Source of the DNA: Ktedonobacterales bacterium
GTDB taxonomy: Bacteria > Chloroflexota > Ktedonobacteria > Ktedonobacterales > JADMIN01
Direction of reading: 5' to 3'
Assembly: GCA_030167145.1 (NCBI GenBank)
Contig: CP126532.1
Location: forward strand, 1,170,001 to 1,202,000
Length of the DNA: 32,000 nucleotides
The translations under genes were made by a program, and so were the position numbers. Below are positions 6,230-24,706 of this stretch, in pieces. Position 1 is the stretch's first letter. Every line of letters begins with the position of its first letter. The notes beneath the pieces were generated by a model that did no database searches, had not been told where the DNA came from, and saw nothing but the letters and a program-made list of their open reading frames with translations.

Positions 6230-6238
6230 ATCGGCGAC

Positions 6239-6664: not shown

Positions 6665-6675
6665 GTGGGAATAAC

Positions 6676-8521: not shown

Positions 8522-8962
8522 TCAGGAGAGTTCCTCGGCCAGCGCGACGATGATGCCCGCAGGGCCTCGCATGTAGCAGAGCCGGTACAGGTTCTCGTAC
8601 TGGGCGACCTCGCCGATGAGTTCAGCGCCGTGGGCGCGCAGGCGAGCGACCGTGTCGTCGACGCTGTCGACGGCAAACATGACGCTCCGGAGGCCCAGCG
8701 TGTTCGGCGGGGCGATCGCCGGTTCGCTCTCGACCAGTTGTGGATGGCGAAACTTCGTCAGCTCAAGCCGCCCGTGGCCATCTGGGGTCCGCAGCATCAC
8801 AATGTCGACTTGGACACTTTCGAGCCCATTGACGCGATCCACCCACGGGCCCTCGACCGGCATCTCGCCTTCGAGCGTCATGCCGAGTGCGGTGAAGAAG
8901 GCAATGGCGGCTGGGAGGTCGTCGACGACGACGCTGACATGGTCCATTCGCTTGATCGTCAT
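8522..8962 (-). CDS. VOC-family (glyoxalase/bleomycin-resistance/dioxygenase fold) protein
   Basis: 146 aa. MDHVSVVVDDLPAAIAFFTALGMTLEGE... is a typical VOC N-terminal beta-alpha-beta module. Confidence 0.85.
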   Translation of the reverse strand: MTIKRMDHVSVVVDDLPAAIAFFTALGMTLEGEMPVEGPWVDRVNGLESVQVDIVMLRTPDGHGRLELTKFRHPQLVESEPAIAPPNTLGLRSVMFAVDSVDDTVARLRAHGAELIGEVAQYENLYRLCYMRGPAGIIVALAEELS

Positions 8963-10552: not shown

Positions 10553-10605
10553 GGCCCTATTCTAGCAAACCGTCATGCAGGAACCGTGACTCGCCGTGGC
10601 ACCTC

Positions 10606-10887
10606 TCACTGCCATCGCCGCCGCATGCCATGCTCGCGTAGTAGCTTCCTCACGCTCTTGACGTTAATGCTGTAGCGCGCTGCCAGTTCGGTCGTGGCAA
10701 TTCCTGTTTGGTATGCCATCACTAGCCGGACGATATCTCGCTCACGCAGTCGATCACGTAACCGCCAACAGGACCTGCGGTACGTAATGGATTTGTTGTC
10801 GCTGCTACATCGCATTGAAGTAGACGGATGCTCTCTGAGCCACCAGATGAGCTGCGGGTTTACTTTGTATCCCGTCACCCGCACCAA
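10606..10887 (-). pseudogene. C-terminal relic of a second large serine recombinase (HTH tail only)
   Basis: The 93-aa ORF aligns by eye with the last ~90 aa of the 691-aa recombinase at 20934-23009. NPQLIWWLREH...WRLRDRLRERDIVRLVMAYQTGIATTELAARYSINVKSVRKLLREHGMRRR matches NPQLSRYLQTH...WRIRDKLSEQDIVRLIVAFKVGAPKQVLADHYGIGMKSVKKILRQYGVKKR. No catalytic or recombinase domain lies upstream. Confidence 0.6.
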
Positions 10888-10903
10888 GCGGACACAAATT
10901 AAA

Positions 10904-10940
10904 GCCCCATACAGAGGTCGTATGGGGCCTTTTTGTATTT
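10904..10940. terminator. Orphan hairpin plus T-tract (rho-independent-type, potentially bidirectional)
   Basis: GCCCCATAC (10904-10912), loop AGAGGTC, GTATGGGGC (10920-10928), then CTTTTTGTATTT. The reverse strand gives the same stem followed by TTTAATTTG. It sits exactly at the truncation point of the recombinase relic. Confidence 0.5.
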
Positions 10941-11119
10941 CGGGTTAGCAAATATGGTCCAAAAGTATGCGGCGTTCCTGCCCGCCACCTCTGAGCGGAG
11001 TTTAACGTCGCATCAGGGGGCCTGATGTTGCATGTTCAAGCTCGCCCCCACAGGAACCAGCGTTGTTTTAATATGTACAAGATGCATCCATTTGCTAGTG
11101 TTGGATAAGGATCCGAACG

Positions 11120-12160
11120 ATGAGTACTGGGGATTTGAGCGCTTACGAAGTCACCGTTGAGCAAGAAATTGCCATGATCCTTCAGGGCAAGCCTCACATC
11201 CTGCTTCTTGGAGCTGGCGCGAGTAAGGCTGCCCTGCCCAATGGCGATAAGCACGGCCGAGCAGTGCCATTGCTGCGGGAAGTGGCAGAAGACTTGACGC
11301 TCGTAGACATATTCCCAGACGACCTAAAGGGATTAGCAGTACGGGACTTTGAGGCGGCCTACTCAAAGCTGTTTGATCAACGGTCATCTGACGAGCTTGG
11401 CAAGATAGACACCCGGATACGCGAGTATTTCTCAAGCTTCGAGCTTCCTGACGAGCCAAATCTCTATGATGTGATCAACCTATCGCTGCGCGACAAAGAT
11501 GCGATCTTCACATTCAACTGGGATCCGTTTCTGGTTCAGTCCCAAAGACGCTTGGCTAAGCGAGGTATAACCACTCGCCTTCCAAAGCTGTTCTTCTTAC
11601 ATGGCAATGTAGCGGTGGGATTTTGCACGAAGGACAGCACGAGTGGATTGGTAGGGCGACCGTGCAGTCGGTGTCACCAGCCGTTTTCGCCTTCCGTCTT
11701 GCTCTTTCCAGTTGAACATAAGGACTACCAGTCAGACAGTTTCATTGCGCGAGAATGGGAAGCGGCCAGGCAGTATTTTCGTGACTGCTTCATGCTCAGT
11801 GTTTTCGGCTATAGCGCTCCCACGACTGACCAAGAGGCGATAGACCTGTTGAAGAAGGGCTGGGGCGATATCAGCGAGCGCGCAATGGAGCAAACTGAAA
11901 TCATCAATCGGCCAGGCGCTGATCGCGACAAGCTTCGGCAAACATGGGCTCCTTTCATTCATACACACCACTATGACGTGATCGAGAGCTTCTACGACTC
12001 CTTCATCGCCAAACACCCTCGGCGAACGCTGGAGGCTTATTGGAACCAGTACTGGGAAGCCAAATTCATTTCTGACAATACGGTGCCGCAACAATTCGCG
12101 ACCTTTGAAGAAGTGGCAGCGTGGTATAAGCCACTGCTCGATGCCGAGACGGCTCAGTAA
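11120..12160 (+). CDS. SIR2-like (SIR2_2/DSR-type) domain protein, stand-alone
   Basis: 346 aa. ILLLGAGASKAA (GAGxS-like NAD pocket), TFNWDPF (equivalent of the TxNxD motif), FFLHGNV (candidate catalytic His), CSRC, and FGYSAPTTDQEAIDLL. No SLOG or other fused domain is recognisable. Confidence 0.55.
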   Translation: MSTGDLSAYEVTVEQEIAMILQGKPHILLLGAGASKAALPNGDKHGRAVPLLREVAEDLTLVDIFPDDLKGLAVRDFEAAYSKLFDQRSSDELGKIDTRIREYFSSFELPDEPNLYDVINLSLRDKDAIFTFNWDPFLVQSQRRLAKRGITTRLPKLFFLHGNVAVGFCTKDSTSGLVGRPCSRCHQPFSPSVLLFPVEHKDYQSDSFIAREWEAARQYFRDCFMLSVFGYSAPTTDQEAIDLLKKGWGDISERAMEQTEIINRPGADRDKLRQTWAPFIHTHHYDVIESFYDSFIAKHPRRTLEAYWNQYWEAKFISDNTVPQQFATFEEVAAWYKPLLDAETAQ

Positions 12161-13318
12161 TCTGTCCCTGCGCCAACTATCTTTCTGTATGCCTCTGGGT
12201 CAGTGGCACCTTCAGTCGAGATGACGACTACATGTGCGTCGGAGGTCAGCCCGAGAGCCTGGCGATACTCATCAGCCTTAGCTGTTTTCAAGAGCGCGAG
12301 CAATCCCGCCAAACCAGCTGAGCCGGTCTCGCCCGATACCACACCAGCTTTGGCGAGTTCGCGCATCGACTCGCGCGCCCAGGCATCATCAATGGCAACG
12401 AAGACGTCGATACCCTTGGAAATAATCGGCCATGCCACGAGCGACGGTATGCCGCAGCATAGACCTGCCATGATGGAGTTGTGCGGGCCAGGAGTCTCAA
12501 CGATATGTCCGGCTTGCGCAGATTCGAGCACGCAGTCGGCAACAAGCGGCTCAGCACCAACGATCCTTGGCTTGTCGGTGAGTTCGGGCCGGCGATAGTG
12601 CCAGACCACAGCGGTTGCCAAGCCACCGACGCCCATCTGAGCCGTCGCAACATCAACCCGCGTGTCGCCTTTCGCGGCCAGCTGTTCGTCGAGTTCGCGG
12701 AGAATGGTGGTGTAGCCTTCCATGATCCAGCGCGGCACTTCAGTGTAGCCTTCCCAAGCGGTATCGGAGATAACCAACGCTCTATCTGACGCTAAACGTT
12801 CCTGATTGCGCCACAGCATCGTCATAGTTGCCGTTGACGATCGTGACCTCGGCACCTTCACTCTTGATGGCATCAATGCGCGCCTGGGTCATTTCCTGCG
12901 GCACCAGAATGTGGGCGTCGAAGCCCAGGAGGTTGGCCATCCGCGCCACTGCCCGACCGTGGTTGCCATCAGTCGCGGCGACGAGCGTTAGTGGCTTGAG
13001 CGGCGCGAACCGGTCTTTCAGATCGTCAAAGGTATACCATAGTTCAATCGTTCCACCGATCTGCATGAGCAGCGCACGATAGACGGCCCATGATGCACCG
13101 AGGAACTTAAACGCTGGCAAGCCGAATCGGCTCGACTCGTCTTTAACCCAGACCTTGCCGACGCCGAGCGTCGCGGCAATGCTTGGGGCATCAATGAGCG
13201 GTGATCGCTGGTAGCCAGGAAGCTTTTGGTGAAAGTCAAACGTCTCACAGCTGGAGAAAGCGTCCTCGAGATTAGCAGTTGCCTGGGGGTTCGGAAAAAC
13301 CTTCGTGTCATTGGACAT
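12154..13318 (-). pseudogene. Diaminopropionate ammonia-lyase-like PLP enzyme (DpaL/YgeX-type) split by a frameshift
   Basis: Two overlapping ORFs in different frames (12782-13318 and 12154-12876). The N-terminal part has SRFGLPAFKFLGASWAVY and ...VNGNYDDAVAQ. The C-terminal part resumes with ...LVISDTAWEGYTEVPRWIMEGYTT. The frame switch maps to about 12797-12815. Confidence 0.7.
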
Positions 13319-13557: not shown

Positions 13558-13743
13558 TTAATGACTCAGGTCAGTCACAGCAGCCTTCACGACTTTCATA
13601 TCTTGCTTGAGTTCGGCGATATCTTCTCTCATAGTCGGGATCATGTCAACCAGGGTCTTCATATCAGCAACAGCTTCAAGTACCGCTTTGTTTTGGTCGC
13701 GGATCTCTTCGAGTAGTATCGCCGTGTCATCCTTGTCTGCCAT
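13558..13743 (-). CDS. Hypothetical small coiled-coil protein
   Basis: 61 aa, heptad-like acidic/basic pattern (EEIRDQNKAVLEAVADMKTLVDMIPTMREDIAELKQDMKVVKAAV). AGGAG lies immediately upstream but the spacing to the ATG is very short. No recognisable family. Confidence 0.4.
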   Translation of the reverse strand: MADKDDTAILLEEIRDQNKAVLEAVADMKTLVDMIPTMREDIAELKQDMKVVKAAVTDLSH

Positions 13744-14067
13744 ACTCCTAGCCTAGCGCAGCTCTAGACGGCCGAAAAGCGACTTGCCGCTACTCGCTCC
13801 ATCTCTCATGCCGTGGCCCTTCTGAACCCTCCCTTCCCACTGACCTGCTGCTCACCGCAGCGGTCTAGCATAAAGCACGGGGAGAAGGTTAGCAGGACAA
13901 ACAGATCGTGCCTCCCCCGATCGGGCTAGCTGGCATACTGGAAGGATAATTGGGGGCAAGTCAACTGAAATAGATCAAAAGGTTCGTCACACCTTACTCA
14001 GGTCGTAGCGCTGCCGCCACCTGGCAGTCTCCGTCCACACCACGAACATGTCATGACAGACGAGGGA

Positions 14068-15198
14068 TCAAAGCCCGTATTTGTATGCCCCCTTCTCTTT
14101 AGCGCCGTCGAGGTGGGTAAGCGCGTCGTCAAGGAGTGACACCGCCTCCTTATCCTTGAGCTTCTTAAGGTGTTGGCGCTCTTTTCGAATCTCAGTCGCC
14201 GACAAGATCTCTGGCTCCTCGCGGGCAATATCTGCGAGCGCCCTCGCTGCGTATTCGCGAACGTCTGCCGCAGAGCTGTGAAGTCGTTGGAAGAAGACAT
14301 ATAACACATCCCGCTGACGCCCAACGAGCGTTTTCAATGCTGCAGTGGCAGGCGCTTCTACATACCAGTCCTCATCAGGTACAGCAAGCCGGGTAAGAAC
14401 ATCTATTGGCACCAAGTCGGGAGCGATATTCGCAAGCTTCATACAAATGCTCGCTGCCGAAGATCGAACAGAGAATACTTGATGCTGTGCCATGCGAAAC
14501 AAAATGTCGTGGCTACTGAGCCAAGGAGCTAGGCCGATACATGCCTCTATCGTTTCTCCCGCTCCCCAAGAATACTCCTCCTCAGTTGGTACGCTCAAAT
14601 TGTACTCTACCAGTGAATTGAATGGCTCATTGTGCCCGAATCTGTCCGTGCGCCGGAGCACCTCCAGTGCAGCAACGTAGGCCTTATCCCAGTCTCCAGG
14701 ACCAATACCGTCAATGAGCGCACTAACCTGATCATTCAGCACGCTTCGATTTGGCGCTACATCGTCTGAGGTCACGGTGGTTCCACGACGCCCCAACGCT
14801 TCCAATACATCGTTTACGATGTCTGTCGCGCCGCGTGCATCTGATGATACAGAGCGTGCGTGTATTTTCTGCAGAAACCATGGCAAATCTCTGAAACTAG
14901 TGTTGTCAATGATGAACGGCATTATCAGTGAGCGTTTCTTTTGAATCTCTAACAGTTTGGCTTGTTCGACCTCTTCACGAACCCAACCCGAATCAAGCGC
15001 TTTCTTAGAAAAGAGGACGATGAATAGGTCCATAGTATCAAGCGCTTCGCCAATACTTTGGAATATGTCCTCTCCAGAGATAATGTGTTCGTGGTCAATC
15101 CACGGGTCAGTTGTGTTGTCGCGCAGGTTTCGAACAACACGGGTAGCGAAGTCCTTATCAGAAGCGGAGTGGCTTATGAAGATGCGCGCCGGTTTCAT
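14068..15198 (-). CDS. TIR-domain protein with C-terminal HEAT/ARM-like repeats
   Basis: 376 aa. N-terminal ARIFISHSASDKDFATRVVRNL...DPWIDHEHIISGEDI...LFIVLFSKKALDSGWVREEVEQA shows the TIR layout, including the conserved Glu after the S-x-W motif. The C-terminus has HEAT-like repeats (...VREYAARALADIAREEP...). Confidence 0.8.
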   Translation of the reverse strand: MKPARIFISHSASDKDFATRVVRNLRDNTTDPWIDHEHIISGEDIFQSIGEALDTMDLFIVLFSKKALDSGWVREEVEQAKLLEIQKKRSLIMPFIIDNTSFRDLPWFLQKIHARSVSSDARGATDIVNDVLEALGRRGTTVTSDDVAPNRSVLNDQVSALIDGIGPGDWDKAYVAALEVLRRTDRFGHNEPFNSLVEYNLSVPTEEEYSWGAGETIEACIGLAPWLSSHDILFRMAQHQVFSVRSSAASICMKLANIAPDLVPIDVLTRLAVPDEDWYVEAPATAALKTLVGRQRDVLYVFFQRLHSSAADVREYAARALADIAREEPEILSATEIRKERQHLKKLKDKEAVSLLDDALTHLDGAKEKGAYKYGL

Positions 15199-15581
15199 AG
15201 CTGTGCCCTACCCAGTTCAAGCAGATGCATATTGATCCCCCATCCTACATAATATACGGCACCTTGCCAAGCCCAGACCACCAGATTACGGTTTAGGATT
15301 CATGCTATTAGACGATTTCTCAAGAACAGAGATAGTTCAGGATTGAATTTAGAGCCCATCACCTCACAGAAATTCGGGATCTCACGGGCGCATACTACAA
15401 TGACCGAGGCAAAGTTGGTATTGTTTGCGTGGGGTGTAATCTTGAGTCCCAACACCTACTGCTTGTACATGACTTGGAGCGAATGATGGCATCTCAACTC
15501 ACTACATCAACCGGCAGATGTGGTATAGTGGCAGTGGCTTTGAGGTGACTAACTGCGTATCGTGCCCGGCGTTCTGTGTGA
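15199..15581. promoter_or_regulatory. Divergent control region between the two TIR genes
   Basis: Visibly more AT-rich than the flanking genes. A candidate extended -10, TGgTATAGT (15521-15529), faces the + strand operon. A TTGGCA-17nt-TAGGAT arrangement lies on the minus strand upstream of the TIR-HEAT start. No experimental support. Confidence 0.35.
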
Positions 15582-17312
15582 GTGATAGAAAACGAGGGTA
15601 GCATGAAGCTGTGGCTTTTCGGACGGAAGGAGCAGCTACGTAGACACTCCTCTGCGGTGCACCGGGGTGCCTTTATTAGCCACGCGAGCGCCGACACAGC
15701 AATGATCGATCCCTATATAAGGGCGTTGCGTAGGCAGGGTTTCGATGTTTGGTATGACCAAGATAATCTAACGGGGGGCGATAGTCTCCCAGTAGTAATT
15801 CAGGAGGAACTCCAGAGGTGCAGCGTCTTCATCGTCTTTCTCACGCAGGCGTCTCTATATTCCAAATGGGTGCAACTCGAGACTGCCACATTTCTCGCAC
15901 TTTTGATGCAGGATCCAGACCGCATGATTATCCCAGTACGGGCCAGCCGTGTCCCGGTGCCGCCCTTCTTACGTACATTCAAGTGGATCGAGGCGACAGA
16001 ACTCAGCCAGCGCCAGGTACTTGAAGAGCTTGTCCAGAAGATCGAGGGCAGCTCGCACCAACACTCCCTGCCTATAGCCGAAGCAAATACACCACCGAGT
16101 GATGGGCGCGTGGGCACGACCGGAGCTGTCCCCTCTGGTCAGCAAGTACTGCACATCGAAGCTGTCCAGGAACACGTCCGCCACTTCTGCGAGCAGTGGC
16201 TGCCGCAATCTCACGGCGACGGCGAGGCGCGCAGTCATCTGTCTCTGCGGAAAAGCAGTTACCTGGATCCCCTGCCACAGAAGGCACGCGCCACGTACGA
16301 TGAGGGCGACTATGAGCAAGCCATCTTATTCTTTGATGAGTTGGTGACGGATATATCACGCGTCAACGCTCTGTCTAACCAGGAAACCGCGCAGTGTCTG
16401 TACTACCTCGCCAAGACGTTACTCAAACTGAATTGGTACAACTCACTGAGCGAGCTGATGGCGGGGCCATACCACCGATTCTCCCGTCTGTCCCAGCACG
16501 AACTCGATGCTGAAGTGTTGCAGATCGAAGGCACAGGCTTTCGCCAGGCGGGTAATATCGGCAATTCGCTTACCTGCTTCGAGGAGGCGACGTATCTGCT
16601 GGAGCAGGCCAGGGCGGCCCGCCCTGATGCTCAGCTCACCCTCGCCTTAGCCGATGTGCTTGTTCTCAAGTCTCATGCCTACCTGGATCAGGCTCTCTGT
16701 GTCGGTGGCACGCCTATCGTGCGTGAGGCGGCCCTTGGCCTGGCCAAGCAGTGCCTCACACACGCCGGAGCGCACTATGATGCGTTTCGCGTTCAGTCGG
16801 GAGGTCATCCAACGCACTATGAGGGGCGTCTGAAGGGAGCGCAAGGCTTCACGACCGTCGCCGAGAGTATCATCTTCCCGAATCGCCTGACAGAGAAACG
16901 CTGGTCTGATACGGAACTCAACGCGCGCGGTGCCTTCGAGCCAGAGCATGAGCGCAAGGCATTCGGCATCGTTGCGGGGAAATATGCACTGGCGGTCATT
17001 TGGCTCGCCAAGGGCCAATGGTTCTTGCAGCAGAAAACCGTTCCCAACGCGGCCGAACGAGCACTCCACTGTTTTCGTGACGCGCTCAATATGCTAGCAC
17101 AAACGTACAAAGAGCACGTGGTCTCAGGACGTGTCTTCTTGGGGCCGCGATTCGAGCTGCCCAAGATGAAGAGATTGCTCCTGGCTCTGCACACCGAAGT
17201 CACTGCACTGGGCTACACACCGTACCAGTCGCTCGATAGCCTCCATCTCGGTGCGGACGAGCTAGATGCCCTTGCGAACGCGCCAATTTGTGTCTACACG
17301 CCGATCGCGTGA
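15582..17312 (+). CDS. TIR-domain protein with C-terminal TPR-like helical repeat domain
   Basis: 576 aa. GAFISHASADTAMIDPYIRALRRQGFDVWYDQDNLTGGDSL...VFIVFLTQASLYSKWVQLETA is a TIR domain with the conserved Glu. Downstream are TPR-like segments (YDEGDYEQAILFFDELV..., ...NIGNSLTCFEEATYLLEQA...). The ATG at 15603, preceded by GAGGG, is a likely alternative start. Confidence 0.8.
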   Translation: MIENEGSMKLWLFGRKEQLRRHSSAVHRGAFISHASADTAMIDPYIRALRRQGFDVWYDQDNLTGGDSLPVVIQEELQRCSVFIVFLTQASLYSKWVQLETATFLALLMQDPDRMIIPVRASRVPVPPFLRTFKWIEATELSQRQVLEELVQKIEGSSHQHSLPIAEANTPPSDGRVGTTGAVPSGQQVLHIEAVQEHVRHFCEQWLPQSHGDGEARSHLSLRKSSYLDPLPQKARATYDEGDYEQAILFFDELVTDISRVNALSNQETAQCLYYLAKTLLKLNWYNSLSELMAGPYHRFSRLSQHELDAEVLQIEGTGFRQAGNIGNSLTCFEEATYLLEQARAARPDAQLTLALADVLVLKSHAYLDQALCVGGTPIVREAALGLAKQCLTHAGAHYDAFRVQSGGHPTHYEGRLKGAQGFTTVAESIIFPNRLTEKRWSDTELNARGAFEPEHERKAFGIVAGKYALAVIWLAKGQWFLQQKTVPNAAERALHCFRDALNMLAQTYKEHVVSGRVFLGPRFELPKMKRLLLALHTEVTALGYTPYQSLDSLHLGADELDALANAPICVYTPIA

Positions 17313-17365
17313 ACCGGCCGTGTGGGACCGTCAGATCGTCCTGCACCGAGAAGGGATGAGCGAGC

Positions 17366-17815
17366 ATGACGACAGGAGAGCAGCACCCGAGCCTCTACAT
17401 CGGGGGCGCCTTTTCCTTCATCTTCAACGCGCGGGGAGAATTCCTCATCTTGCGCGAAGATGACCGAACGCGCAAATACGAATGGGATCTCCCGGGTGGT
17501 ACGTTGGAGCACGAGGAATCGCCGCTCGATGGGCTCCGTCGCGAGATCGTGGAGGAGACCGGACTCACGGTTCAGCTCATAACACCAGCGTGCTTTCTCA
17601 AGTGGGATCGGCACGAGAGCGGACGTCCGATTCTCGTGGCATTCTACCTGACCGTTCCCGCATCGGAAGAGATTGCGTTATCTCCTGAGCACGTTGCTTT
17701 CCGCTGGGTCTCGAGAAGCGACGTCGAAGCCGAAGGGATCCATCTAGCGCCTTCCGAGCACATCATTGACGCCGTTTTCACGTTGTATCACCAGGTGACG
17801 AACTATGCGTCCTAG
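17366..17815 (+). CDS. NUDIX hydrolase
   Basis: 149 aa. Complete Nudix box GGTLEHEESPLDGLRREIVEETGL. Starts 53 nt after the TIR-TPR stop, with GAAGGGA upstream of the ATG. Confidence 0.85.
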   Translation: MTTGEQHPSLYIGGAFSFIFNARGEFLILREDDRTRKYEWDLPGGTLEHEESPLDGLRREIVEETGLTVQLITPACFLKWDRHESGRPILVAFYLTVPASEEIALSPEHVAFRWVSRSDVEAEGIHLAPSEHIIDAVFTLYHQVTNYAS

Positions 17816-18749
17816 CCTCGCCGTCACCGTGATGGGAGACCTGAACATCGAGATTGCGTCCGAGCTCAAGGACCACGCCTTCGTTACGCTAGACCATGAT
17901 CTCCTCGTCTACGGCAATGTGCAGCTCGAAGTTGGCGGCACCGCAGCCAATTTTGCGATGGCGGCCCGCGGTTACTTCGGCGAGATCCACGTGATCGGGA
18001 AGGTTGGCACCGATGACCTCGGGCCGATAATCACGCATCGGCTTGCAGGTATGGGCATTCACGTGCACTGCAGCACAAGCTCGTCAACGCCGACGGGGCT
18101 CGCTATCTACCTGCGAGATGCACACTCTTCGCGGCCCAAAGGTACTCGCCTCCTCATCGTGCAGCCAAACTCGGCAAACCAGGCACTGACGACATCAGAT
18201 ATTGAGCAACAGGCACAGGTCTTCGCGGACAGCGATTTGCTCGTCCTAGACGGCTATTGCATGCTGCAGCAGCCCCGACGCGATGCGAGCCTGCTGGCCA
18301 TGCAGATTGCTCACGCCAGCGGCGCGTTGATCGCGTTCGACATCGTTCCGCATGACGCGTACAACTTGTACAGCCTGGATGCACTGTTGTCGATGACTGC
18401 CCTCGCAGACGTTATAATCGTCGAGGTCGGAGCCATTCGGCGCTTCCTCGGCCGTCCCGTACCCGATGGGACGATAGACGTCGACATTGCCTTGGAGACA
18501 GCAGAGGTATTGCGTTCTACGTTAGCCGAGAAGGCGTACCTGCTGAGGTTTGGTTGGGGCGGTAGCGATCAGTCCCTCGTATGTCTGCCAAAAAGCGCGC
18601 CGCGTCATAGTTTCACTGGCTACCGACAGGCGGCGGGATCTCGCGGGTTCGGTGATCAGCTCGCGGCGCGCGAACTGGCTGATATTACGCCGACACTTAG
18701 AACGGTTGGGACGCAGGGGCACGGCGATAGACAAGGTGGAGGAGAGTAG
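17805..18749 (+). CDS. PfkB/ribokinase-family sugar or nucleoside kinase
   Basis: 314 aa. VTVMGDLNIE start, GGTAANFA motif, and a C-terminal GSRGFGDQLAA segment resembling a divergent DTxGAGD motif. Overlaps the NUDIX gene by 11 nt. Confidence 0.7.
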   Translation: MRPSLAVTVMGDLNIEIASELKDHAFVTLDHDLLVYGNVQLEVGGTAANFAMAARGYFGEIHVIGKVGTDDLGPIITHRLAGMGIHVHCSTSSSTPTGLAIYLRDAHSSRPKGTRLLIVQPNSANQALTTSDIEQQAQVFADSDLLVLDGYCMLQQPRRDASLLAMQIAHASGALIAFDIVPHDAYNLYSLDALLSMTALADVIIVEVGAIRRFLGRPVPDGTIDVDIALETAEVLRSTLAEKAYLLRFGWGGSDQSLVCLPKSAPRHSFTGYRQAAGSRGFGDQLAARELADITPTLRTVGTQGHGDRQGGGE

Positions 18750-18752
18750 GCG

Positions 18753-20303
18753 ATGAGCACCTCGGAATGCGTACTTTCAGAACAGATCCGGCCTTACATA
18801 CGTCGCGCGCTTGCAGCCGGTGATCACAACTACACGGCGTGTGGAGCGACCGACGAGGAAGCTGGAACGGAACTCGCCATTGCCCGATCGATCGAGCGAG
18901 CATATATTATGGGCGTCAGCGAGCCATCTCCGGCAACACCACATGGCGAACCCGCGCTGGTGGTACCTGTGAACGTTGGCTCCCAGGCACTATTGGCAGC
19001 TGTGTTCCGCACCGAGTCCGGGTATCAGGCAGTGCTGCGGGACCTAGGCCAGGGTAAGTTTGTCTTCGGTGACGACAACACAACCTTCGGACGATGGAAC
19101 GCACTCGCGGCATGTACGCCAGCAGGGCAAGTTATCGAGATCTTCCGGGGGCATGGTGGGGAGATCATTCCCGGTAAGCTATCTGATCATATCGAACGTC
19201 TCCGCGACAACGTCAGGGGCGGGCAGCGTCGACCGGTACAGATGGACATCGACATAAGTATGGCGTGCGCGTCGCGGTGCAGTTTCTGCTTTTCGGCCGA
19301 CTACCGTGCCACGCGTAAGCGTGACATGATGATGGACCAGCAGGTGATGCTCGGCCTGATACGAGAATGGGCCGAACTGGGCGTGAAGGTTGTCCGTTTC
19401 GACGGGGGCGGCGACCCGTTGACACATCCTCACATCTTGGAGGCCATCCGGCTGTCTACGGACCTCGGCATGCAGACAGCGGTCCTCACGAGCGGTGATC
19501 TGCTGGACGAGCGGCAGTTTGAGACACTTGTCACCTGCCGCACCTATGTGCGGATAAGCCTCAATGCCGGCTATGATGCTACCCGCCTTCTGCTGCACGA
19601 TCCGGTTTCGACCCGGTATGACGTTTCACGGGTACTGGCCAATGTCCAGCGTTTGAGCAGCCTGCGCATGCAGACCTATGGTCCCTCGGCTCAGCAGCAG
19701 ATGTTACTCGGTGCCACATGTATGCTCCACCCGGCGAACGGCGGCGAAGTCTATCGGATCGCTGAACGAGCGAAAGAGGCTGGCTTCGATCACCTATCGT
19801 TTCGGGTGATCCTCGGGGCGAAGCATGCGGTCCAGTTCACAAGCTCCTTGCAGGATGCAGTAGACGAGCAATTCGCGCGCATCGGCAAAGACCTCGTGGA
19901 TGAATCGTTTCTCGTCTTCTTCCCCACGCGTCCGCTTACTGACACTGGCTACGTCCCTCAAGAGTTCTTCCCTGAATGCCTGGCCTGTACACACCGCATG
20001 CTGATCGAGGTCGGTCATCGCTCGGACGTGGCAGCTCTTGTCCCCTGCGGGCGGTATCGCGGTCACGGCTTTCGCTGGTCGGCTGAAAACGCTGAGCGTG
20101 TCACCGTCTTCGGGCATGTCCAGCCTCCGGGGCGGGTTGCCGATATCTGGATGAATGACCGAATGCGCAGCCTAATTGCGAGTTTTCCGCAGGCATGCTC
20201 GGACTGTATTGACAGGTCTGCCAACCTGTTCTTTGGCCATATCACAGGGGTCCTGCACCGTCATGGTGATGCGCAGTTCTACAGGTTCGCTACAGTGGAC
20301 TGA
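18753..20303 (+). CDS. Radical SAM enzyme with an uncharacterised ~170-aa N-terminal extension and a Cys-rich C-terminal region
   Basis: 516 aa. CX3CX2C cluster motif CASRCSFC (Cys172/176/179, nt 19266-19289), GGGDP (GGE-like SAM motif), then VLTSGD and RISLNAG strands as in MoaA/viperin-like cores. C-terminal cysteines are CLAC...PCG...CSDC. Starts 3 nt after the PfkB stop. Confidence 0.8.
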   Translation: MSTSECVLSEQIRPYIRRALAAGDHNYTACGATDEEAGTELAIARSIERAYIMGVSEPSPATPHGEPALVVPVNVGSQALLAAVFRTESGYQAVLRDLGQGKFVFGDDNTTFGRWNALAACTPAGQVIEIFRGHGGEIIPGKLSDHIERLRDNVRGGQRRPVQMDIDISMACASRCSFCFSADYRATRKRDMMMDQQVMLGLIREWAELGVKVVRFDGGGDPLTHPHILEAIRLSTDLGMQTAVLTSGDLLDERQFETLVTCRTYVRISLNAGYDATRLLLHDPVSTRYDVSRVLANVQRLSSLRMQTYGPSAQQQMLLGATCMLHPANGGEVYRIAERAKEAGFDHLSFRVILGAKHAVQFTSSLQDAVDEQFARIGKDLVDESFLVFFPTRPLTDTGYVPQEFFPECLACTHRMLIEVGHRSDVAALVPCGRYRGHGFRWSAENAERVTVFGHVQPPGRVADIWMNDRMRSLIASFPQACSDCIDRSANLFFGHITGVLHRHGDAQFYRFATVD

Positions 20304-20310
20304 CCGCTCT

Positions 20311-20330
20311 TCCCCGCGGTGGGGGCTTTT
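20311..20330 (+). terminator. Weak candidate terminator after the radical SAM gene
   Basis: tCCCC-gcggt-GGGGg short GC stem followed by CTTTTG, 8 nt after the stop codon. The stem is only 4-5 bp. Confidence 0.3.
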
Positions 20331-20448
20331 GCCCGACGATAGCCACCGCTGCTAGATTTCGCTGGGAGGACACATGTGGAAGGCACAAGAGCGGTTGCAC
20401 GGTTTCCGTCCGAGTGTCGACTAGGCGCACCACTGCTCTGGTGCTAAC

Positions 20449-20880
20449 ATGAGGAGAATGGACATGCCATCGCACGGAATCGTCGCCCTGATACGCAACG
20501 ACCTTGAACAGTACTTGCTACTCGAGGACGCCCGGGAACCCATGCTGGGCTACTGGGCGCCACCTCATGGCCGTTGCGAGCCGACGGATACCTCAGAAGA
20601 GCAAAGTATCGTGAGGGAAGTCCTAGAAGAAACGGGGCTCACAGTGACGCCTCTCGAAAAAGTCTTCACCCAACCAGCCGACACTAAAGTCAAGACTGTC
20701 TCGTTCTGGCTGGTCCACGCAGCATCGGCCTCAACTATAGGACTCAATGACGAGTCATCTGCTTATGGATGGTTCGATATCGAGAGTCTGCTCAAGCTAA
20801 GACTCTACCCGGGAACCAGGACATTCTTTGAGCGAGTCCTAAACGGTGAGGTTAGGCTTGGCCAAGACGAACACTCATAA
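20449..20880 (+). CDS. NUDIX hydrolase (second copy, divergent from the first)
   Basis: 143 aa. Nudix box PPHGRCEPTDTSEEQSIVREVLEETGL. Separated from the radical SAM gene by 145 bp. Confidence 0.8.
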   Translation: MRRMDMPSHGIVALIRNDLEQYLLLEDAREPMLGYWAPPHGRCEPTDTSEEQSIVREVLEETGLTVTPLEKVFTQPADTKVKTVSFWLVHAASASTIGLNDESSAYGWFDIESLLKLRLYPGTRTFFERVLNGEVRLGQDEHS

Positions 20881-20933: not shown

Positions 20934-23009
20934 TCACGGCTGCACATCAAACCTCGACCGTTTCTTCACGCCGTACTGCCGTAGTATCTTCTTGACGCTC
21001 TTCATACCAATGCCATAGTGATCCGCGAGCACCTGTTTCGGTGCTCCAACCTTGAACGCGACAATGAGCCGCACAATATCCTGCTCGCTCAATTTGTCAC
21101 GGATTCGCCAAATTCGTCGTCTAGGGAACAACAACGCCCGTGCCTGAGATTGCTGCTTCAGAATAGTGGTCGAGTGCGTTTGCAGGTAGCGCGACAACTG
21201 CGGGTTCAAATTGAGTCGCGTCAGCCCAACCAAATGATGTATGTTCGAACCCTGGACCCTCTGCCGGCCAGGGTTTTGCTTATCTATCGGCAGTGGCCCG
21301 CGTGGCCGCTCAGCATACGGTCGCTCCCGCGTCTCAGCGAGCGTATCCAGCAGGTTTAGGGTGGACTGGCGCAGGCGGTAGTACATGTCGTCCTCGCCGC
21401 CTACCGCCGTGGCAGGCTTGCGCTGTTCCGCAAAGGCCAATTGGGCGTCGAGTGTTAACAGTTCCGCGAATGGTTCGGTGAGTTCGCAGCCAGCAACGGC
21501 GGTGTCCAGGACCCAGAGCTTCTCGAAGACGGTCTGCACGAGCAGCAGTTTGAGCCCTTCCGGCAGGGCATCATACAGCACTTGTGGGCTCTCGGTGAGC
21601 ACCAGCGCGGTATCGAGTGCCTGGGTGATGCTCTCCAGCTCCACGCTCCACTGGGCAATGATCGCGTCAGCCGCCTGAATGCCCTGCCGAAATGTCGCCT
21701 GCTCCGCTTTGAACTCGTCCAGGTCGAGCACCCCGGCGTAGTAGGCGGCCTTAGCCTTCTGCCGCCGCTGCTCGAGGGCGACGATCCGGCGCTGCTGCTG
21801 CTCGATTTCGACCGCGCCTTGCTCGTGTTTGCCGGCGAAGTTCTCCAGGATGGCCGCACGTAGGGCGTGCCGGCGTGCTTCGGGGATGCGCACGCGGGCC
21901 CACTGGGTGCGCACTGCGCGCACGACGTCGGCGACTGAGATGTACCCCTGCGGACAGCGGTTTTTGTCGACCTGGCGGCCCAAACAGAAGAAGTAGGGAT
22001 ACGCTCTGCCGATACGCCGATTCTTGGCGACGGTGATGCCGAGCCGCCGGCCGCACCGCGCACAGTAGAGTACACCCTTCAGGTGGTGTGGCCGCTTCTT
22101 TGATTTGTCCTTATTCTGAGCGCGCGCATCGAGCAGGGCCTGCACCCGGTTGAACGTGGCCTCATCGATGAGCGGCGGATGTGCTCCCTGGTACGCCACT
22201 CCGCTGAACCACACCCAACCGGCGTAATAGCGATTCCGGAGCAGCCGTTGCATGGTTTGCCGATTGGTCGGTCGCTCGGGCAAGCGCCGGTTGGCAGGCA
22301 GCCGTAAGCCTTGATCATTGGCGTAGGCCGCGACGTCCGCCAGGGTATAGAGGCCGCTGTCGTAGCGCTTGAAGCAGTCGGTCACGATCGGTCCGAAGGT
22401 CTCGTGGACGCGCACGTCGCCGATGTCCTTGCCGAGCTTCGTGATCTTCACGCGCACGTTCTCGTACCCGATGGGGACGAAGCCGGGGGTGCCGCCGTTC
22501 TCGGCTTTCTTACGCATCCCCTTCTTGGCTTCCTCACTCAGGTTGGCGGAGTACCACTCCGCGATGTCGGCCATGATGCCGTGGACCAGCCGACCCGAGG
22601 GACTGTCGTCGATGTTCTCAGTGCAGGAGACGAGCCGCACGCCGTTCTTGGCGAGCAGCAAGCCGATCTGCACGTCGTCTTCGCGATTTCGCGCCAGCCG
22701 GTCGAGCTTGTGGACCAGGACGTACTGGATGTCAGTGTCTTCCTTGATGCGGGCCAGCATGGCTTGCAAGGCGGGGCGGTCCGCGGTGCGGGCACTCTTG
22801 CCGCGGTCCACGTATTCGTCTACGAGCTGCACGCCTAGCTCGGCAGCTTTTCGCTGGCAGTAGTCACGCTGCGCCTGGATGGAAAAGCCGTCCTCGTCGT
22901 AGCTGGTGTTGGCTTGGTCGCTCGTCGAGACGCGAAAGTAGGCGACACCAACACGCAGGCCGTTGACCGGCGCGCGCTGTGGTTCCGGGTGGGCGCGCTT
23001 GGCGGGCAT
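20934..23009 (-). CDS. Large serine recombinase (resolvase/invertase N-domain, recombinase domain, zinc ribbon and coiled-coil) with an extra C-terminal HTH tail
   Basis: 691 aa. VGVAYFRVSTSDQ (catalytic Ser), LVHKLDRLARN, Cys-rich YCARCGRRLG...FFCLGR...CPQG, then a long helical region. The C-terminal ...DIVRLIVAFKVGAPKQVLADHYGIGMKSVKKILRQYG is HTH-like. Confidence 0.9.
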   Translation of the reverse strand: MPAKRAHPEPQRAPVNGLRVGVAYFRVSTSDQANTSYDEDGFSIQAQRDYCQRKAAELGVQLVDEYVDRGKSARTADRPALQAMLARIKEDTDIQYVLVHKLDRLARNREDDVQIGLLLAKNGVRLVSCTENIDDSPSGRLVHGIMADIAEWYSANLSEEAKKGMRKKAENGGTPGFVPIGYENVRVKITKLGKDIGDVRVHETFGPIVTDCFKRYDSGLYTLADVAAYANDQGLRLPANRRLPERPTNRQTMQRLLRNRYYAGWVWFSGVAYQGAHPPLIDEATFNRVQALLDARAQNKDKSKKRPHHLKGVLYCARCGRRLGITVAKNRRIGRAYPYFFCLGRQVDKNRCPQGYISVADVVRAVRTQWARVRIPEARRHALRAAILENFAGKHEQGAVEIEQQQRRIVALEQRRQKAKAAYYAGVLDLDEFKAEQATFRQGIQAADAIIAQWSVELESITQALDTALVLTESPQVLYDALPEGLKLLLVQTVFEKLWVLDTAVAGCELTEPFAELLTLDAQLAFAEQRKPATAVGGEDDMYYRLRQSTLNLLDTLAETRERPYAERPRGPLPIDKQNPGRQRVQGSNIHHLVGLTRLNLNPQLSRYLQTHSTTILKQQSQARALLFPRRRIWRIRDKLSEQDIVRLIVAFKVGAPKQVLADHYGIGMKSVKKILRQYGVKKRSRFDVQP

Positions 23010-23011
23010 CG

Positions 23012-23662
23012 CTACACCGCTTCCCCCAGCAGGTAGACTGGCGTGCGCAAGCGGAAGTAAGTGCTCGTCGCCCGCTTGGATTCGTCCGCATCTTCCAGCA
23101 ACCCCATCTGGCGCATGCGGACATCCATGGCGCTGACCGACACTTCAAACAGGGTGGCGAGGTTGTAGACATCCTGGATGCCATTGGCCCAGCTGTTCTT
23201 GACCCAGGTTTTCGGCATCAGAAAGCAGGCCGCGAAGTGCTGACACAGCGCTTCCACGTGCGCGCGCCGTTTCTCGTCGTCGCCGTAGCCGAAGCGTTGG
23301 TAGGCCAGCCGGTCGAGGGAGTGGTCAATGACGTGCTTGAACTCGTGCGCCAGGGTATAACGCCGGCGGCCGTGAATGTCATTCTTATCGACGAAGATGG
23401 TCCAGTGACCCTTATTGAAGTGGCTGATCCCCGCGAAGTGGTTCATCAGGTAGCTCGGTTCGAGCTCGACTTCGAGATTCGGCAGCTGCAGCAGCTTGTC
23501 GTACCGGACGGGTGGCGCCTGAATATCGAGCAGCTCCAGCAGCTTGTAGGCCTGCCGCTCGGCCACGCTGTAGGCTTCCATCAGCGTCAACGGCCGGCGC
23601 GGCATGAGGTCGCGCACTTGCTCAATGACCGTTCGCTCGTTCGCTGCCTGCATCTGCCCCAT
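23012..23662 (-). CDS. ImmA/IrrE-family zinc metallopeptidase (anti-repressor protease)
   Basis: 216 aa. HEFKHVIDH (HExxH). Located between an XRE repressor and a recombinase, as in ImmR-ImmA-Int modules. Only 2 nt separate its stop from the recombinase start. Confidence 0.85.
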   Translation of the reverse strand: MGQMQAANERTVIEQVRDLMPRRPLTLMEAYSVAERQAYKLLELLDIQAPPVRYDKLLQLPNLEVELEPSYLMNHFAGISHFNKGHWTIFVDKNDIHGRRRYTLAHEFKHVIDHSLDRLAYQRFGYGDDEKRRAHVEALCQHFAACFLMPKTWVKNSWANGIQDVYNLATLFEVSVSAMDVRMRQMGLLEDADESKRATSTYFRLRTPVYLLGEAV

Positions 23663-23704: not shown

Positions 23705-24067
23705 TCACGGTGCGCCATGATCACGGTCGTACTTGTCCAGAATGTCCCGCAGCGCCTCGCTCGCCGCCGCTAGCGCCTCGGGCGGCAGCCGGTACTTGGC
23801 CCGCAGGTACGGCGTCAGGCTCGGCAGCTTCTCGCTCGGCCGGTAGCCGACAAAGGCGAAGAGGTCGTCGCTGTCCAGCTCCAGCGCCTCGGCCAGTCGG
23901 TGCAGCAGGTCGGGGCTGGGATTTTCCAGCTCGTCGTGCTCGAGCCGGAGCAGCAACTGCCGCGACACGCCAACGATCGCTTCCAGGTTGCGCAGCGAAA
24001 AGCCAGCGCGTTCCCGGGCCTGTCGGATGGTCGTGCCGAGGGTACTGGGTAGGGGGTGGTCAGTCAT
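23705..24067 (-). CDS. XRE-family helix-turn-helix transcriptional repressor (ImmR-like)
   Basis: TIRQARERAGFSLRNLEAIVGVSRQLLLRLEHDE is an HTH_XRE. I prefer the ATG at 24067 (AGGAAG RBS, promoter-like elements at 24093-24123) over the ORF-track TTG start at 24136. Confidence 0.85.
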   Translation of the reverse strand: MTDHPLPSTLGTTIRQARERAGFSLRNLEAIVGVSRQLLLRLEHDELENPSPDLLHRLAEALELDSDDLFAFVGYRPSEKLPSLTPYLRAKYRLPPEALAAASEALRDILDKYDRDHGAP

Positions 24068-24092
24068 AGCCGCTTCCTTGCTTACTGCTGCC

Positions 24093-24123
24093 AGTGTAGC
24101 ACAGTTGTCACGCAGTCGTGACA
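24093..24123 (-). promoter_or_regulatory. Candidate autoregulated promoter/operator of the XRE-ImmA-recombinase operon
   Basis: The minus strand has an extended -10, TGcTACACT (-10 hexamer 24098-24093). A perfect inverted repeat, TGTCACG-cagt-CGTGACA (24106-24123), overlaps the -35/spacer region. The half-site CGTGACA recurs at 24217-24223, within a tandem TGACACCAATT repeat (24219-24229 and 24231-24241). Confidence 0.4.
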
Positions 24124-24274
24124 GTGAAATCGACAACGGGTCGGTGGATTGATGGCGTGTATCGAGGTAAGCGTTGAGGACAGTCTGTGCTGAACGCGGG
24201 CGAAGGGTAGCGAATGCGTGACACCAATTTTGACACCAATTGGAGCGAACGAACGCGAATTTCGGCGGCCGAGC

Positions 24275-24339: not shown

Positions 24340-24706
24340 TGGTGGAGATGGGGGAGAGTCGAACTCCCCGTCCAAACAGGCGACGAAGACGATATGCTAC
24401 AGGCGTAGCCGATGTGTTGATGACGCGCGGCGGCCTCCCATCGGCAAAATGCCGCCGCGCCTACCCGCTGCTCTTGATAGCCGTTAGCGGGCGGTCCCGA
24501 CTATCACAGCCCGACTTGGTGACGCCCGTACCCGACCCATCAGGCGGAGGTCGGACGGACGCGCTTCACTGGTGTTTAAGCAGCGAGAGCGAGAGCTGGC
24601 CGATTGTTGGCAGCTATTGTTTTGCCAGTTGTTTTACGAGGCTGCGATACTGGCACCTCGGCCTGCAAACGTCCACTTCCCCTGCCTGTCGAAACCCGAC
24701 ATCCCC
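24340..24706 (-). ncRNA. ssrA: tmRNA (transfer-messenger RNA, SsrA)
   Basis: The minus-strand 5' end GGGGATGTCGGGTTTCGACAGG (from 24706) and 3' end GGACGGGGAGTTCGACTCTCCCCCATCTCCACCA (ending 24340) form a tRNA-Ala-like acceptor stem with a G3-U pair and a T-arm. The internal tag ORF GCC AAC AAT CGG CCA GCT CTC GCT CTC GCT GCT TAA (24610-24575) encodes ANNRPALALAA. The gene lies 40 nt downstream of smpB. Confidence 0.92.

Follow-up and report, generated by a model that had tools for sequence, protein, structure and literature searches.

A radical SAM-NUDIX gene cassette of Ktedonobacterales with an interchangeable effector-receptor protein: an apparently undescribed candidate conflict system

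Results

We analyzed a window of 32,000 nucleotides (nt) from a Ktedonobacterales bacterium of the Chloroflexota (GenBank assembly GCA_030167145.1, contig CP126532.1, positions 1,170,001 to 1,202,000 of the forward strand). All positions given below are those of the window unless a locus of another genome is named. Between 15582 and 20880 the window carries five intact open reading frames (ORFs), all on the plus strand, which were identified by ORF calling and Pfam searches and which we consider together as a cassette. Gene 1 (15582..17312) encodes a 576-amino-acid (aa) receptor-effector protein that matches Pfam TIR_2. It is followed by NUDIX hydrolase 1 (NUDIX1, 149 aa, 17366..17815), a PfkB/ribokinase-fold kinase (314 aa, 17805..18749), a radical S-adenosylmethionine enzyme (rSAM, 516 aa, 18753..20303) and NUDIX hydrolase 2 (NUDIX2, 143 aa, 20449..20880). 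In this order the genes are spaced by a 53-nt gap, an 11-nt overlap between NUDIX1 and PfkB, a 3-nt gap and a 145-nt gap before NUDIX2. The active-site motifs are all kept (the Fe-S cysteine triad and GGGDP of rSAM, the Nudix box, the GG pair and Asp of PfkB and the TIR glutamate), and the enzymes look active as far as their sequences can tell. A sequence-only reading of the window had described this arrangement, and its gene order, spacing and motif coordinates were all reproduced exactly. It had also assigned a TIR domain with a conserved Glu and a TPR-like region to gene 1, a complete Nudix box to NUDIX1, a PfkB fold with a GFGD motif to the kinase, an N-terminal extension of approximately 170 aa and extra C-terminal cysteines to rSAM, and a second, divergent NUDIX gene after 145 bp. 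Each of these assignments was borne out by the profile and structure searches described below.

The rSAM protein matches Pfam Radical_SAM over aa 169-305 (E 3e-16; 60.5 bits against a cutoff of 29.5 bits), which places it by sequence in the radical SAM superfamily. It carries the CX3CX2C motif CASRCSFC (C172, C176 and C179; 19266-19289, plus strand). In the family, which comprises 55 clusters of homologues, the motif GGGDP (aa 218-222; 19404-19418, plus strand) and four C-terminal cysteines (C409, C432, C482 and C485; within 19977-20207, plus strand) are invariant. The N-terminal extension includes a family-specific beta-rich domain (aa 63-160; 18939-19232). No Pfam SPASM match was obtained alongside the four invariant C-terminal cysteines, and the NCBIfam models that hit rSAM all scored far under their cutoffs. 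When the AlphaFold2 (AF2) model (mean predicted local distance difference test, pLDDT, 86.6) was compared with solved structures by Foldseek, the best folds were DesII (E 1e-13, template modelling score [TM] 0.5) and BlsE, with matches of 1e-13 to 1e-12. They were followed by SPASM/twitch peptide maturases (SkfB, SuiB, PqqE, anSME and ChlB) and then by viperins (approximately E 1e-9, query-normalised TM approximately 0.37) and MoaA. All of these matches have a query-normalised TM of 0.5 or less and an identity of 19% or less. The nearest folds, DesII, BlsE, MoaA and viperin, belong to enzymes that act on nucleotide-linked sugars or nucleosides; the substrate of DesII is a TDP-sugar and that of BlsE a nucleoside sugar acid (cytosylglucuronate). 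The protein is carried as a hypothetical protein in the annotation of the Ktedonobacterales metagenome-assembled genome, and it represents a new rSAM family distinct from viperin. Plasmid and phage collections yielded generic matches to the rSAM core and no members of the family, and a viral structure library yielded generic matches only.

Both NUDIX proteins exceed the Pfam cutoff (NUDIX1, E 4e-17; NUDIX2, E 1e-14) and can be assigned on this basis to the NUDIX hydrolase family. The complete Nudix box of NUDIX1 spans G45-L67 (17498-17566, plus strand). Its residues P43, G45, R59, E60, E63 and E64 are invariant in both of the rSAM clades described below, and REx2EE is invariant across 18 family sequences. 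NUDIX2 has a divergent box (G41-L64; 20569-20640, plus strand) of the variant form Gx5Dx8REUxEExGU. It is a cassette gene in the pair of Ktedonobacterales genomes compared below and resembles the NUDIX half of distant HAD-NUDIX fusions, with 45% identity to the NUDIX domain of one such protein (locus L010). The nearest solved proteins of NUDIX1 are MutT-related and Ap4A-type hydrolases, and both proteins lie nearest to the MutT, Ap4A and nucleoside triphosphate (NTP) types; the NudE and NadM-Nudix models reached 17-25 bits, far under their cutoffs (NCBIfam, PDB). By these comparisons neither protein would belong to the ADP-ribose (ADPR) pyrophosphatase subfamily. The kinase matches Pfam PfkB (E 3e-14; 53.3 bits against a cutoff of 25.8 bits) over aa 9-218 only, its C-terminal third lying outside the match. 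The GG pair (GG44-45; 17934-17939, plus strand) and the FGD motif (F282-G283-D284; 18648-18656, plus strand), which is the end of GFGD and contains the presumed catalytic Asp284, are invariant in the family, as are N49, DGY, PRR, VPH, E207, RFG and TG. In the NxxE motif the Asn is not conserved and only E207 is kept. In the PDB it matches adenosine kinase and sugar kinases best. The protein can be regarded by its fold as a member of the ribokinase-fold group, with an activity that is predicted only.

In gene 1 a TIR domain at the N-terminus is joined through a variable linker to a conserved TPR-like module. The TIR domain (aa 31-143; 15672..16010, plus strand) matches TIR_2 with E 2e-20 (73.8 bits against a cutoff of 28 bits). 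The solved structures closest to it are bacterial TIR domains, among them the NAD(+) hydrolase AbTIR (8g83, 7uwg) as well as 7uxr and 3h16. The conserved glutamate is E100 (15879-15881, within SKWVQLE); it aligns with the glutamate of the WxxxE helix of AbTIR and 7uxr, which in AbTIR we take to be the catalytic residue. In fold and in the position of this glutamate the domain conforms to the TIR NADases and is predicted to be one of them. The start of gene 1 is uncertain: we used the GTG at 15582, and the JGI call begins at Met41, which would truncate the TIR domain. The TPR-like module (aa 222-576; 16245..17309, plus strand), delimited by the AF2 model, Foldseek and the family alignment, is modelled as an all-alpha, TPR-like superhelix (pLDDT 85.8). 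Its best Foldseek match is the TPR domain of LGN/Pins, and domain III of MalT is also close. Three motifs of the module, which recall those of enzymes, are invariant in the family: THYEGRxxG (16812-16838), RKxFGIVAGKY (here RKPFGIVAGKY, 16953-16985) and the C-terminal tail ..TP[LI]x (here ..YTPIA, 17295-17309), all on the plus strand. H412, R416, R458 and several glycines remain invariant down to approximately 18% overall identity. An exhaustive search of 1.84 billion representative proteins with a hidden Markov model (HMM) of the module yielded no more than 48 of them at E<1e-3; a word-indexed protein search recovered only 7-8 close relatives, even from a profile query.

The extent of the cassette was defined by comparison with a second Ktedonobacterales genome (locus L001). 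The window from 15504 to 20773 is colinear with L001 4728-9982 at 73% nt identity (blastn), and the flanks of the two cassettes are unrelated to each other. The match starts just 5' of gene 1; at the other end the blastn block stops within NUDIX2 at 20773 and protein similarity continues to 20859. Because of the extent of this block, NUDIX2 can be counted as a member of the cassette and the neighboring gene for a TIR-HEAT-repeat protein cannot. The cassette would be a discrete, transferable unit. Gene 1 as a whole is 73% identical to its L001 orthologue. Within the cassette, the C-terminal half of the receptor is 86% identical between the two genomes (the maximum of the cassette), the enzymes 70-78% and the linker 38%. 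Because the C-terminal half of the receptor is the most conserved stretch of the cassette, its conservation favors a conserved small ligand or partner rather than a fast-evolving phage protein.

Members of the rSAM family lie beside the same partners in approximately 27 non-redundant loci of Chloroflexota, Actinomycetota, Bacteroidota and Armatimonadota. Conservation of the neighborhood, which the sequence-only reading had named as a check on its proposal, is strong. The homologues (29-73% identity) adjoin a NUDIX gene and a receptor-effector gene across genomes and metagenomes; the linked loci come from Ktedonobacterales, Streptomyces, Amycolatopsis, Micromonospora, Actinocrinis, Knoellia, Pimelobacter, Fimbriimonadales, Lewinellaceae and metagenomes. 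In a profile census of these loci, the C-terminal approximately 350 aa of the partner protein match aa ~222-576 of gene 1. The exceptions to the linkage are very short contigs, a locus with a truncated rSAM (L006) and a 5.8-kb contig (L019). Two further loci (L017 and L020), in which the receptor protein is fused to a HAD domain, showed no NUDIX. The linkage was also recovered from the receptor side, where a NUDIX or HAD-NUDIX gene was adjacent in all five look-ups from receptor-module matches. A radical SAM gene was present in the four look-ups with enough flank, the fifth being a 3.2-kb contig; three of these genes were confirmed as family members by profile and that of L039 by Pfam only. 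The joint recurrence of these genes in dozens of independent loci indicates that the linkage is not a chance association. The distribution over the four phyla is patchy and rare, and the profile census of the family loci found no transporter, resistance or tailoring genes conserved with the cassette.

PfkB, which the sequence-only reading had taken as a core part, is absent from many family loci. It is present in most loci of the Ktedonobacteria/Actinomycetota type and in one distant locus, and it is absent from several others, some of which carry a HAD phosphatase fused to the NUDIX or to the receptor protein. The invariant core thus appears to consist of rSAM, NUDIX and the receptor-effector, with PfkB as a clade-specific accessory. 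In the Micromonospora cassette (L005) a full-length, MetK-like S-adenosylmethionine synthetase of 474 aa (13649-15073, minus strand) adjoins the TCAD9-receptor gene and could supply S-adenosylmethionine to rSAM. In L032 an 852-aa CofH/FO-synthase-like radical SAM gene (6179-8737) lies directly 5' of the family rSAM, probably by coincidence.

The N-terminal domain of the receptor protein differs between the loci. It is a TIR domain in the window and in L001, a CHAT protease in three Streptomyces loci and one metagenome (L002, L004, L011 and L038), a TCAD9/APH kinase-like domain in Amycolatopsis, Micromonospora and two metagenomes (L003, L005, L016 and L032), HAD-SIR2 or SIR2 in L017, L020 and L033, and HD or HD-CE in L035 and L039. 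EAD11 or EAD7 adaptors also occupy this position. In other loci (L012, L030 and L031) the receptor is bare, and either a separate TIR-FGE gene precedes it or a two-transmembrane coiled-coil protein follows rSAM. A census of 31 receptor homologues gave HD in 10, SIR2 in 5, CHAT in 4, TCAD9 in 2 and EAD in 2. The TCAD9 and EAD families of Pfam are presumably to be attributed to the eLife 2020 conflict-systems paper, in the main text of which neither name appears. The combination of one core with many killer domains is a hallmark of prokaryotic conflict systems. Because orthologous cassettes replace the TIR domain and keep the receptor, NUDIX and rSAM (and in clade A mostly PfkB too), TIR cannot be an obligatory source of substrate. 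It appears to be an interchangeable output domain, one of many, rather than the first step of a pathway.

Several genes accompany particular effector variants. The separate gene of L012 (5792-7093), which has counterparts in L014 and L015, is a fusion of TIR_2 and FGE-sulfatase directly 5' of the bare receptor gene; FGE-sulfatase domains may serve as sensor modules in Ktedonobacteria. In the actinobacterial cassettes with a bare receptor, the gene that follows encodes a conserved coiled-coil protein of 350 aa with two transmembrane helices (L030 10556-11614 and L031 10582-11634). L001 has a TnpB/Cas12f-like gene (2838-3983) 5' of the cassette and a two-transmembrane SLATT_1/SLATT_3 gene (10420-11439) 3' of it. 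The L030 protein showed no BLASTP similarity to this SLATT protein and only a faint DUF4231 match, and the window cassette is without such a membrane gene. In the three Streptomyces loci of the CHAT type a conserved protein of approximately 245 aa, with no Pfam family, is encoded directly 5' of rSAM and the CHAT-receptor gene (L004 7141-7878, L002 1745-2485 and L011 9124-9879). It has a weak, colinear match to the PADLOC bGSDM profile (E 0.003; aa 14-165 against profile positions 11-175 of 257). An E value of 0.003 falls short of any safe threshold and searches of Pfam and PDB profiles were negative; the gasdermin call was kept as a lead only. A CHAT protease and a gasdermin together would form a known death module.

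A second clade of rSAM proteins (clade B, approximately 30% identity) has a different partner. Directly 5' of rSAM lies a fusion of TIR_2, a CAP12/Pycsar-type TIR or apparent transmembrane segments with a domain X of approximately 300 aa and a NUDIX domain. These loci keep the rSAM features without the TPR-like module or the TP[LI] tail, and the partner ends in NUDIX. Identification of domain X with the TPR-like module was rejected (hhalign probability 0.1%), and no solved relative of X was found. In the distant clade-B proteins P0053-P0055 the cluster motif is CX4CX3C (CASRDCGGFC), not the canonical CX3CX2C.

Downstream of the cassette, on the minus strand, lie a large serine recombinase (691 aa, 20934-23009), an ImmA/IrrE-type M78 peptidase (23012-23662), a helix-turn-helix (HTH) protein (23705-24136), a tmRNA identified by Rfam (24340-24706, tag ANNRPALALAA) and then SmpB. 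In its layout, the row from recombinase to tmRNA resembles an integrative element that entered on the 3' side of ssrA. For Pseudomonas aeruginosa, a hotspot flanked by tmRNA has been reported as a site of defence genes (PMC10250203). An att-like duplication was not found by a direct-repeat search or by blastn-short with the tmRNA 3' end. Serine recombinases do not require long repeats.

Upstream and divergent from the cassette is the gene for the TIR-HEAT-repeat protein (376 aa, 14068-15198, minus strand), with matches to TIR_2, ThsB_TIR, CAP12-type TIR and HEAT_2. The block common to the window and L001 does not include it, and it may by itself be a defence candidate of a single gene. The GC content around 11-16 kb is lower (0.50-0.53 against approximately 0.59). 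The genes between 1 and 13 kb are mostly metabolic or without match (FMN dehydrogenase, aminotransferase, an FGE-sulfatase-domain protein, Ldh_2, LD-carboxypeptidase and a split PALP enzyme). The FGE-sulfatase domain is C-terminal in an 815-aa protein (3782-6229, minus strand). The pyridoxal phosphate-dependent PALP enzyme (12154-13318, minus strand) is split over two ORFs that overlap (12782-13318 and 12154-12876), which probably reflects a frameshift in a pseudogene or an error of sequencing. A 93-aa ORF (10606-10887, minus strand) resembles the C-terminal HTH region of the serine recombinase (aa 594-684, E 4e-19); it is either what remains of a second recombinase or a small HTH gene in its own right, and could mark an older island boundary. 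The sequence-only reading had placed the cassette in an island with a second TIR, a recombinase, a SIR2-like gene, a CD-NTase and an HsdR relic. The first two are present as described; for the last three, Pfam and PADLOC gave no match among the window ORFs tested. A 346-aa ORF (11120-12160, plus strand) without match in Pfam, PADLOC or PDB sequences may be what had been taken for the CD-NTase or the SIR2-like gene. No riboswitch was found 5' of the operon, the tmRNA being the sole Rfam match, and a promoter and terminator scan was uninformative.

PADLOC, NCBIfam (domain-level or far sub-threshold matches) and the searchable literature contained no matching system, in agreement with the earlier impression that this set of genes corresponds to no defence system with a name. 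The cassette is apparently an undescribed, new kind of system, and the comparative genomics argues strongly for this. Three known systems were considered and rejected. The likeness to viperin, on which the sequence-only reading had drawn, does not extend to membership: the NCBIfam model viperin_w_prok reaches 37.5 bits against a cutoff of 180 bits and covers aa 168-278 only, the prokaryotic viperin (pVip) match of PADLOC (E 9e-12) covers only positions 9-116 of 262 of the profile, which is the cluster-binding N-terminal part of the core, and the viperin fold follows DesII and BlsE in the structural ranking. As for Thoeris, the ThsB models match the TIR domain only (PADLOC E 3e-11 or weaker), ThcB4 scores 17.5 bits against a cutoff of 220 bits, and Pfam found no SLOG or Macro effector in the cassette. 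CBASS was rejected on the absence of a CD-NTase or SMODS match (Pfam, PADLOC) among the window ORFs tested.

Discussion

In this study, we describe a cassette whose conserved genes encode an rSAM enzyme, a NUDIX hydrolase and a receptor-effector protein, and we consider it probable that the cassette is a conflict system. We favor a conflict role because the domains joined to the receptor module are classic immune effectors that are exchanged between lineages. The sequence-only reading had reached the same role partly from SIR2, CD-NTase and HsdR neighbors, which were not detected among the window ORFs tested; a role against phages has indirect evidence in the exchange of effectors, the mobile-element context and the TIR-HEAT neighbor. 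The fuller explanation that we prefer is that the cassette is an intact representative of a conflict system that is modular and rare and most likely acts against phages by abortive infection. We give this explanation slightly less than an even chance. What the computation shows is the set of genes, their intact catalytic motifs, the conserved linkage, the exchange of effectors, the rarity and the absence from the catalogues of known systems that were searched, whereas the role in defence, the kind of substrate, the signal function of the product and the receptor function of the TPR-like module are inferred. In the proposed mechanism, rSAM would act on a nucleotide or nucleoside-diphosphate-linked substrate, and NUDIX, together with PfkB or HAD, would set the phosphorylation state or the lifetime of the product. 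The product would be bound by that half of the TPR-like module which is highly conserved and rich in His, Arg and Lys, and binding would switch on the N-terminal effector of gene 1. Here the effector would be the TIR NADase, leading to NAD+ depletion and growth arrest of the infected cell, and NUDIX2 might be a second trimming or off-switch enzyme. Taken by itself, this specific mechanism lies for us somewhere between doubtful and nearly even. It seems rather unlikely that the cassette represents the first immune signalling pathway with an rSAM-made second messenger. In such a pathway rSAM would, upon infection, turn a nucleotide or NDP-linked metabolite into a radical-modified molecule; TPR-like receptors of a new class would read it and set off TIR, SIR2, HD, caspase-like or pore effectors, and NUDIX and HAD/PfkB would serve for processing or as the off-switch.

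Several observations weigh against this explanation. Known defence genes were not enriched around the Streptomyces loci, PADLOC finding none beside the two that were tested. Several of the actinobacterial copies are surrounded by housekeeping genes. The usual ligands of TPR arrays are peptides or proteins, and the fold would suit direct recognition of a phage protein or a partner enzyme just as well. The examined cassettes have a PfkB kinase or a HAD phosphatase and never both, and several have neither, which is hard to accommodate in one simple pathway. In addition, domain X of clade B is unrelated to the TPR-like module, so that the receptor is not universal.

Part of this evidence would suit a defence with two separate arms, in which the TPR-like module senses a phage protein and rSAM, NUDIX and PfkB independently make a viperin-like antiviral nucleotide analogue, the kinase and hydrolases setting the phosphorylation of the analogue or protecting the host pool. 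The module is closest in fold to LGN/Pins, which binds peptides, and to MalT domain III, the pVip HMMs and viperin structures do match the rSAM core, and the NUDIX proteins are nearest to MutT/NTP-type hydrolases. Moreover, pVips often adjoin nucleotide kinases. However, the C-terminal half of the receptor is the most conserved part, with basic and glycine motifs invariant across phyla, unlike fast-evolving sensors of phage proteins; rSAM fails the viperin thresholds and is approximately 200 aa longer, with extra domains at both ends; and the strict linkage of receptor, rSAM and NUDIX, including the NUDIX fusion of clade B, would be needless for independent arms. We regard such a defence as improbable, if still a serious competitor. 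It is also possible that rSAM is a maturase that modifies a protein or peptide, either the receptor-effector itself (for example at its ..TP[LI]x tail) or a small peptide, with NUDIX and PfkB as ancillary enzymes. The structural neighbors SkfB, SuiB, PqqE, anSME and ChlB, the four invariant C-terminal cysteines, which could hold an auxiliary cluster, and the strikingly invariant tail of the receptor would all fit, and HXS offers a reported precedent of a defence system with an rSAM-matured effector (PMC13128918). The chance of this is nevertheless small, since clade B keeps the rSAM features with a partner that lacks the TPR-like module and the tail and ends in NUDIX, since the NUDIX that serves as universal partner has its catalytic residues intact and in many cases a fused HAD, features that speak for a small molecule of the nucleotide type, and since Pfam found no SPASM match.

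The channel proposed in the sequence-only reading, in which TIR cleaves NAD+ and an ADPR-derived moiety passes through NUDIX and PfkB to rSAM to yield a toxic or signalling nucleotide, agrees with the NADase type of the TIR domain, its intact glutamate and the tight packing of the genes; by the established chemistry of these families, ADPR or ribose would be conceivable substrates of NUDIX and ribokinase-fold enzymes. However, orthologous cassettes with rSAM, NUDIX and the receptor have CHAT, SIR2, HD, TCAD9/APH, EAD7/EAD11 or nothing in place of TIR, the NUDIX proteins are closer to MutT/Ap4A enzymes than to ADPR pyrophosphatases, and PfkB is dispensable in many loci. This makes the channel very improbable. 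A role outside immunity, either in the synthesis or salvage of a modified nucleoside or sugar or in the developmental cell death of filamentous bacteria, with a TPR regulator, might explain why some actinobacterial copies lie among core housekeeping genes and why the Streptomyces loci tested have no known defence genes beside them; the hosts are mostly filamentous, differentiating bacteria, and DesII and BlsE are enzymes of antibiotic biosynthesis. On the other hand, fusions of the receptor to TIR, SIR2, CHAT, HD and EAD and the two-transmembrane or SLATT neighbors are a conflict signature that would be unexpected for biosynthesis. The patchy, rare distribution over four phyla, the unrelated flanks, the mobile-element neighbors and the lack of conserved transporter, resistance or tailoring genes in the census also speak against it, and we think such a role unlikely.

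If the cassette is defensive, it would add radical SAM chemistry beyond viperin, as well as a new receptor class, to bacterial immunity. It would also provide a compact five-gene case, and nature offers variants of it whose shared core would act through TIR, SIR2, HD, caspase-like or membrane effectors. If the product of rSAM were identified, a nucleotide-derived signal or an antiviral compound of a new kind could come to light. Through its CHAT variants and the possible gasdermin, the system would be linked to regulated cell death in Streptomyces. Even if the cassette is not defensive, rSAM and NUDIX are an uncharacterised, tightly co-evolving enzyme pair.

Among known systems, the cassette shares with viperin a radical SAM enzyme in a conflict context beside a kinase and a similar cluster-binding part of the core. 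However, rSAM has 516 aa as compared with approximately 300 aa and has its own N-terminal beta domain and C-terminal four-cysteine domain, and viperin structures rank under DesII, BlsE and the peptide maturases. In addition, the kinase is of the PfkB fold and not a nucleoside monophosphate kinase, and rSAM is obligately linked to NUDIX and the receptor-effector. DesII and BlsE are the best structural matches of rSAM, and DesII aligns over approximately 400 columns, most of its length; yet the identity is 15-19% at a TM of approximately 0.5, the NCBIfam models score 35.7 against 400 bits (BlsE) and 19.1 against 450 bits (DesII), and the rSAM loci are without sugar or antibiotic pathway genes. 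The likeness to the bacterial gasdermin-protease systems is limited to the CHAT variants of Streptomyces, and a gasdermin-like gene is absent from the window.

With Thoeris the cassette has in common a bacterial TIR domain of the NADase class and the coupling of effector domains (SIR2, TIR and caspase-like CHAT) to a sensor, and the outcome would likewise be NAD+ depletion in the manner of abortive infection. Type IV Thoeris connects TIR to a caspase-like protease, and type VIII has ThsI with a TPR. The TPR domain of this effector has been proposed as the receptor of a nucleotide signal, cyclic ADPR (bioRxiv 10.64898/2025.12.03.692087), which gives the receptor role proposed here a precedent. 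The cassette differs in that its TIR would be a swappable effector on the receptor, not a separate, signal-making ThsB, and in that its conserved enzymes are rSAM and NUDIX.

The NTP-dependent conflict systems (Kaur, Burroughs, Iyer and Aravind 2020, PMC7159879) use the same vocabulary of TIR, CHAT, SIR2, TCAD9, EAD7, EAD11 and FGE-sulfatase domains and show the same bias to filamentous Actinomycetota and Chloroflexota, whereas the cassette is without their STAND, vWA-MoxR or GTPase core. In that work radical SAM appears only as an effector of the FtsH ternary system and Nudix only generically, and the triad of rSAM, NUDIX and receptor is not described. Compared with CBASS, Pycsar and type III CRISPR, the cassette has no CD-NTase, cyclase or Cas10, and the putative signal maker would be rSAM; the putative receptor is TPR-like and not SAVED, STING, CARF or CNB. 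What the cassette shares with these systems is a conserved enzyme module and a receptor on interchangeable effectors (TIR, SIR2, HD, protease and two-transmembrane proteins), together with a hydrolase that could switch the signal off, as ring nucleases do.

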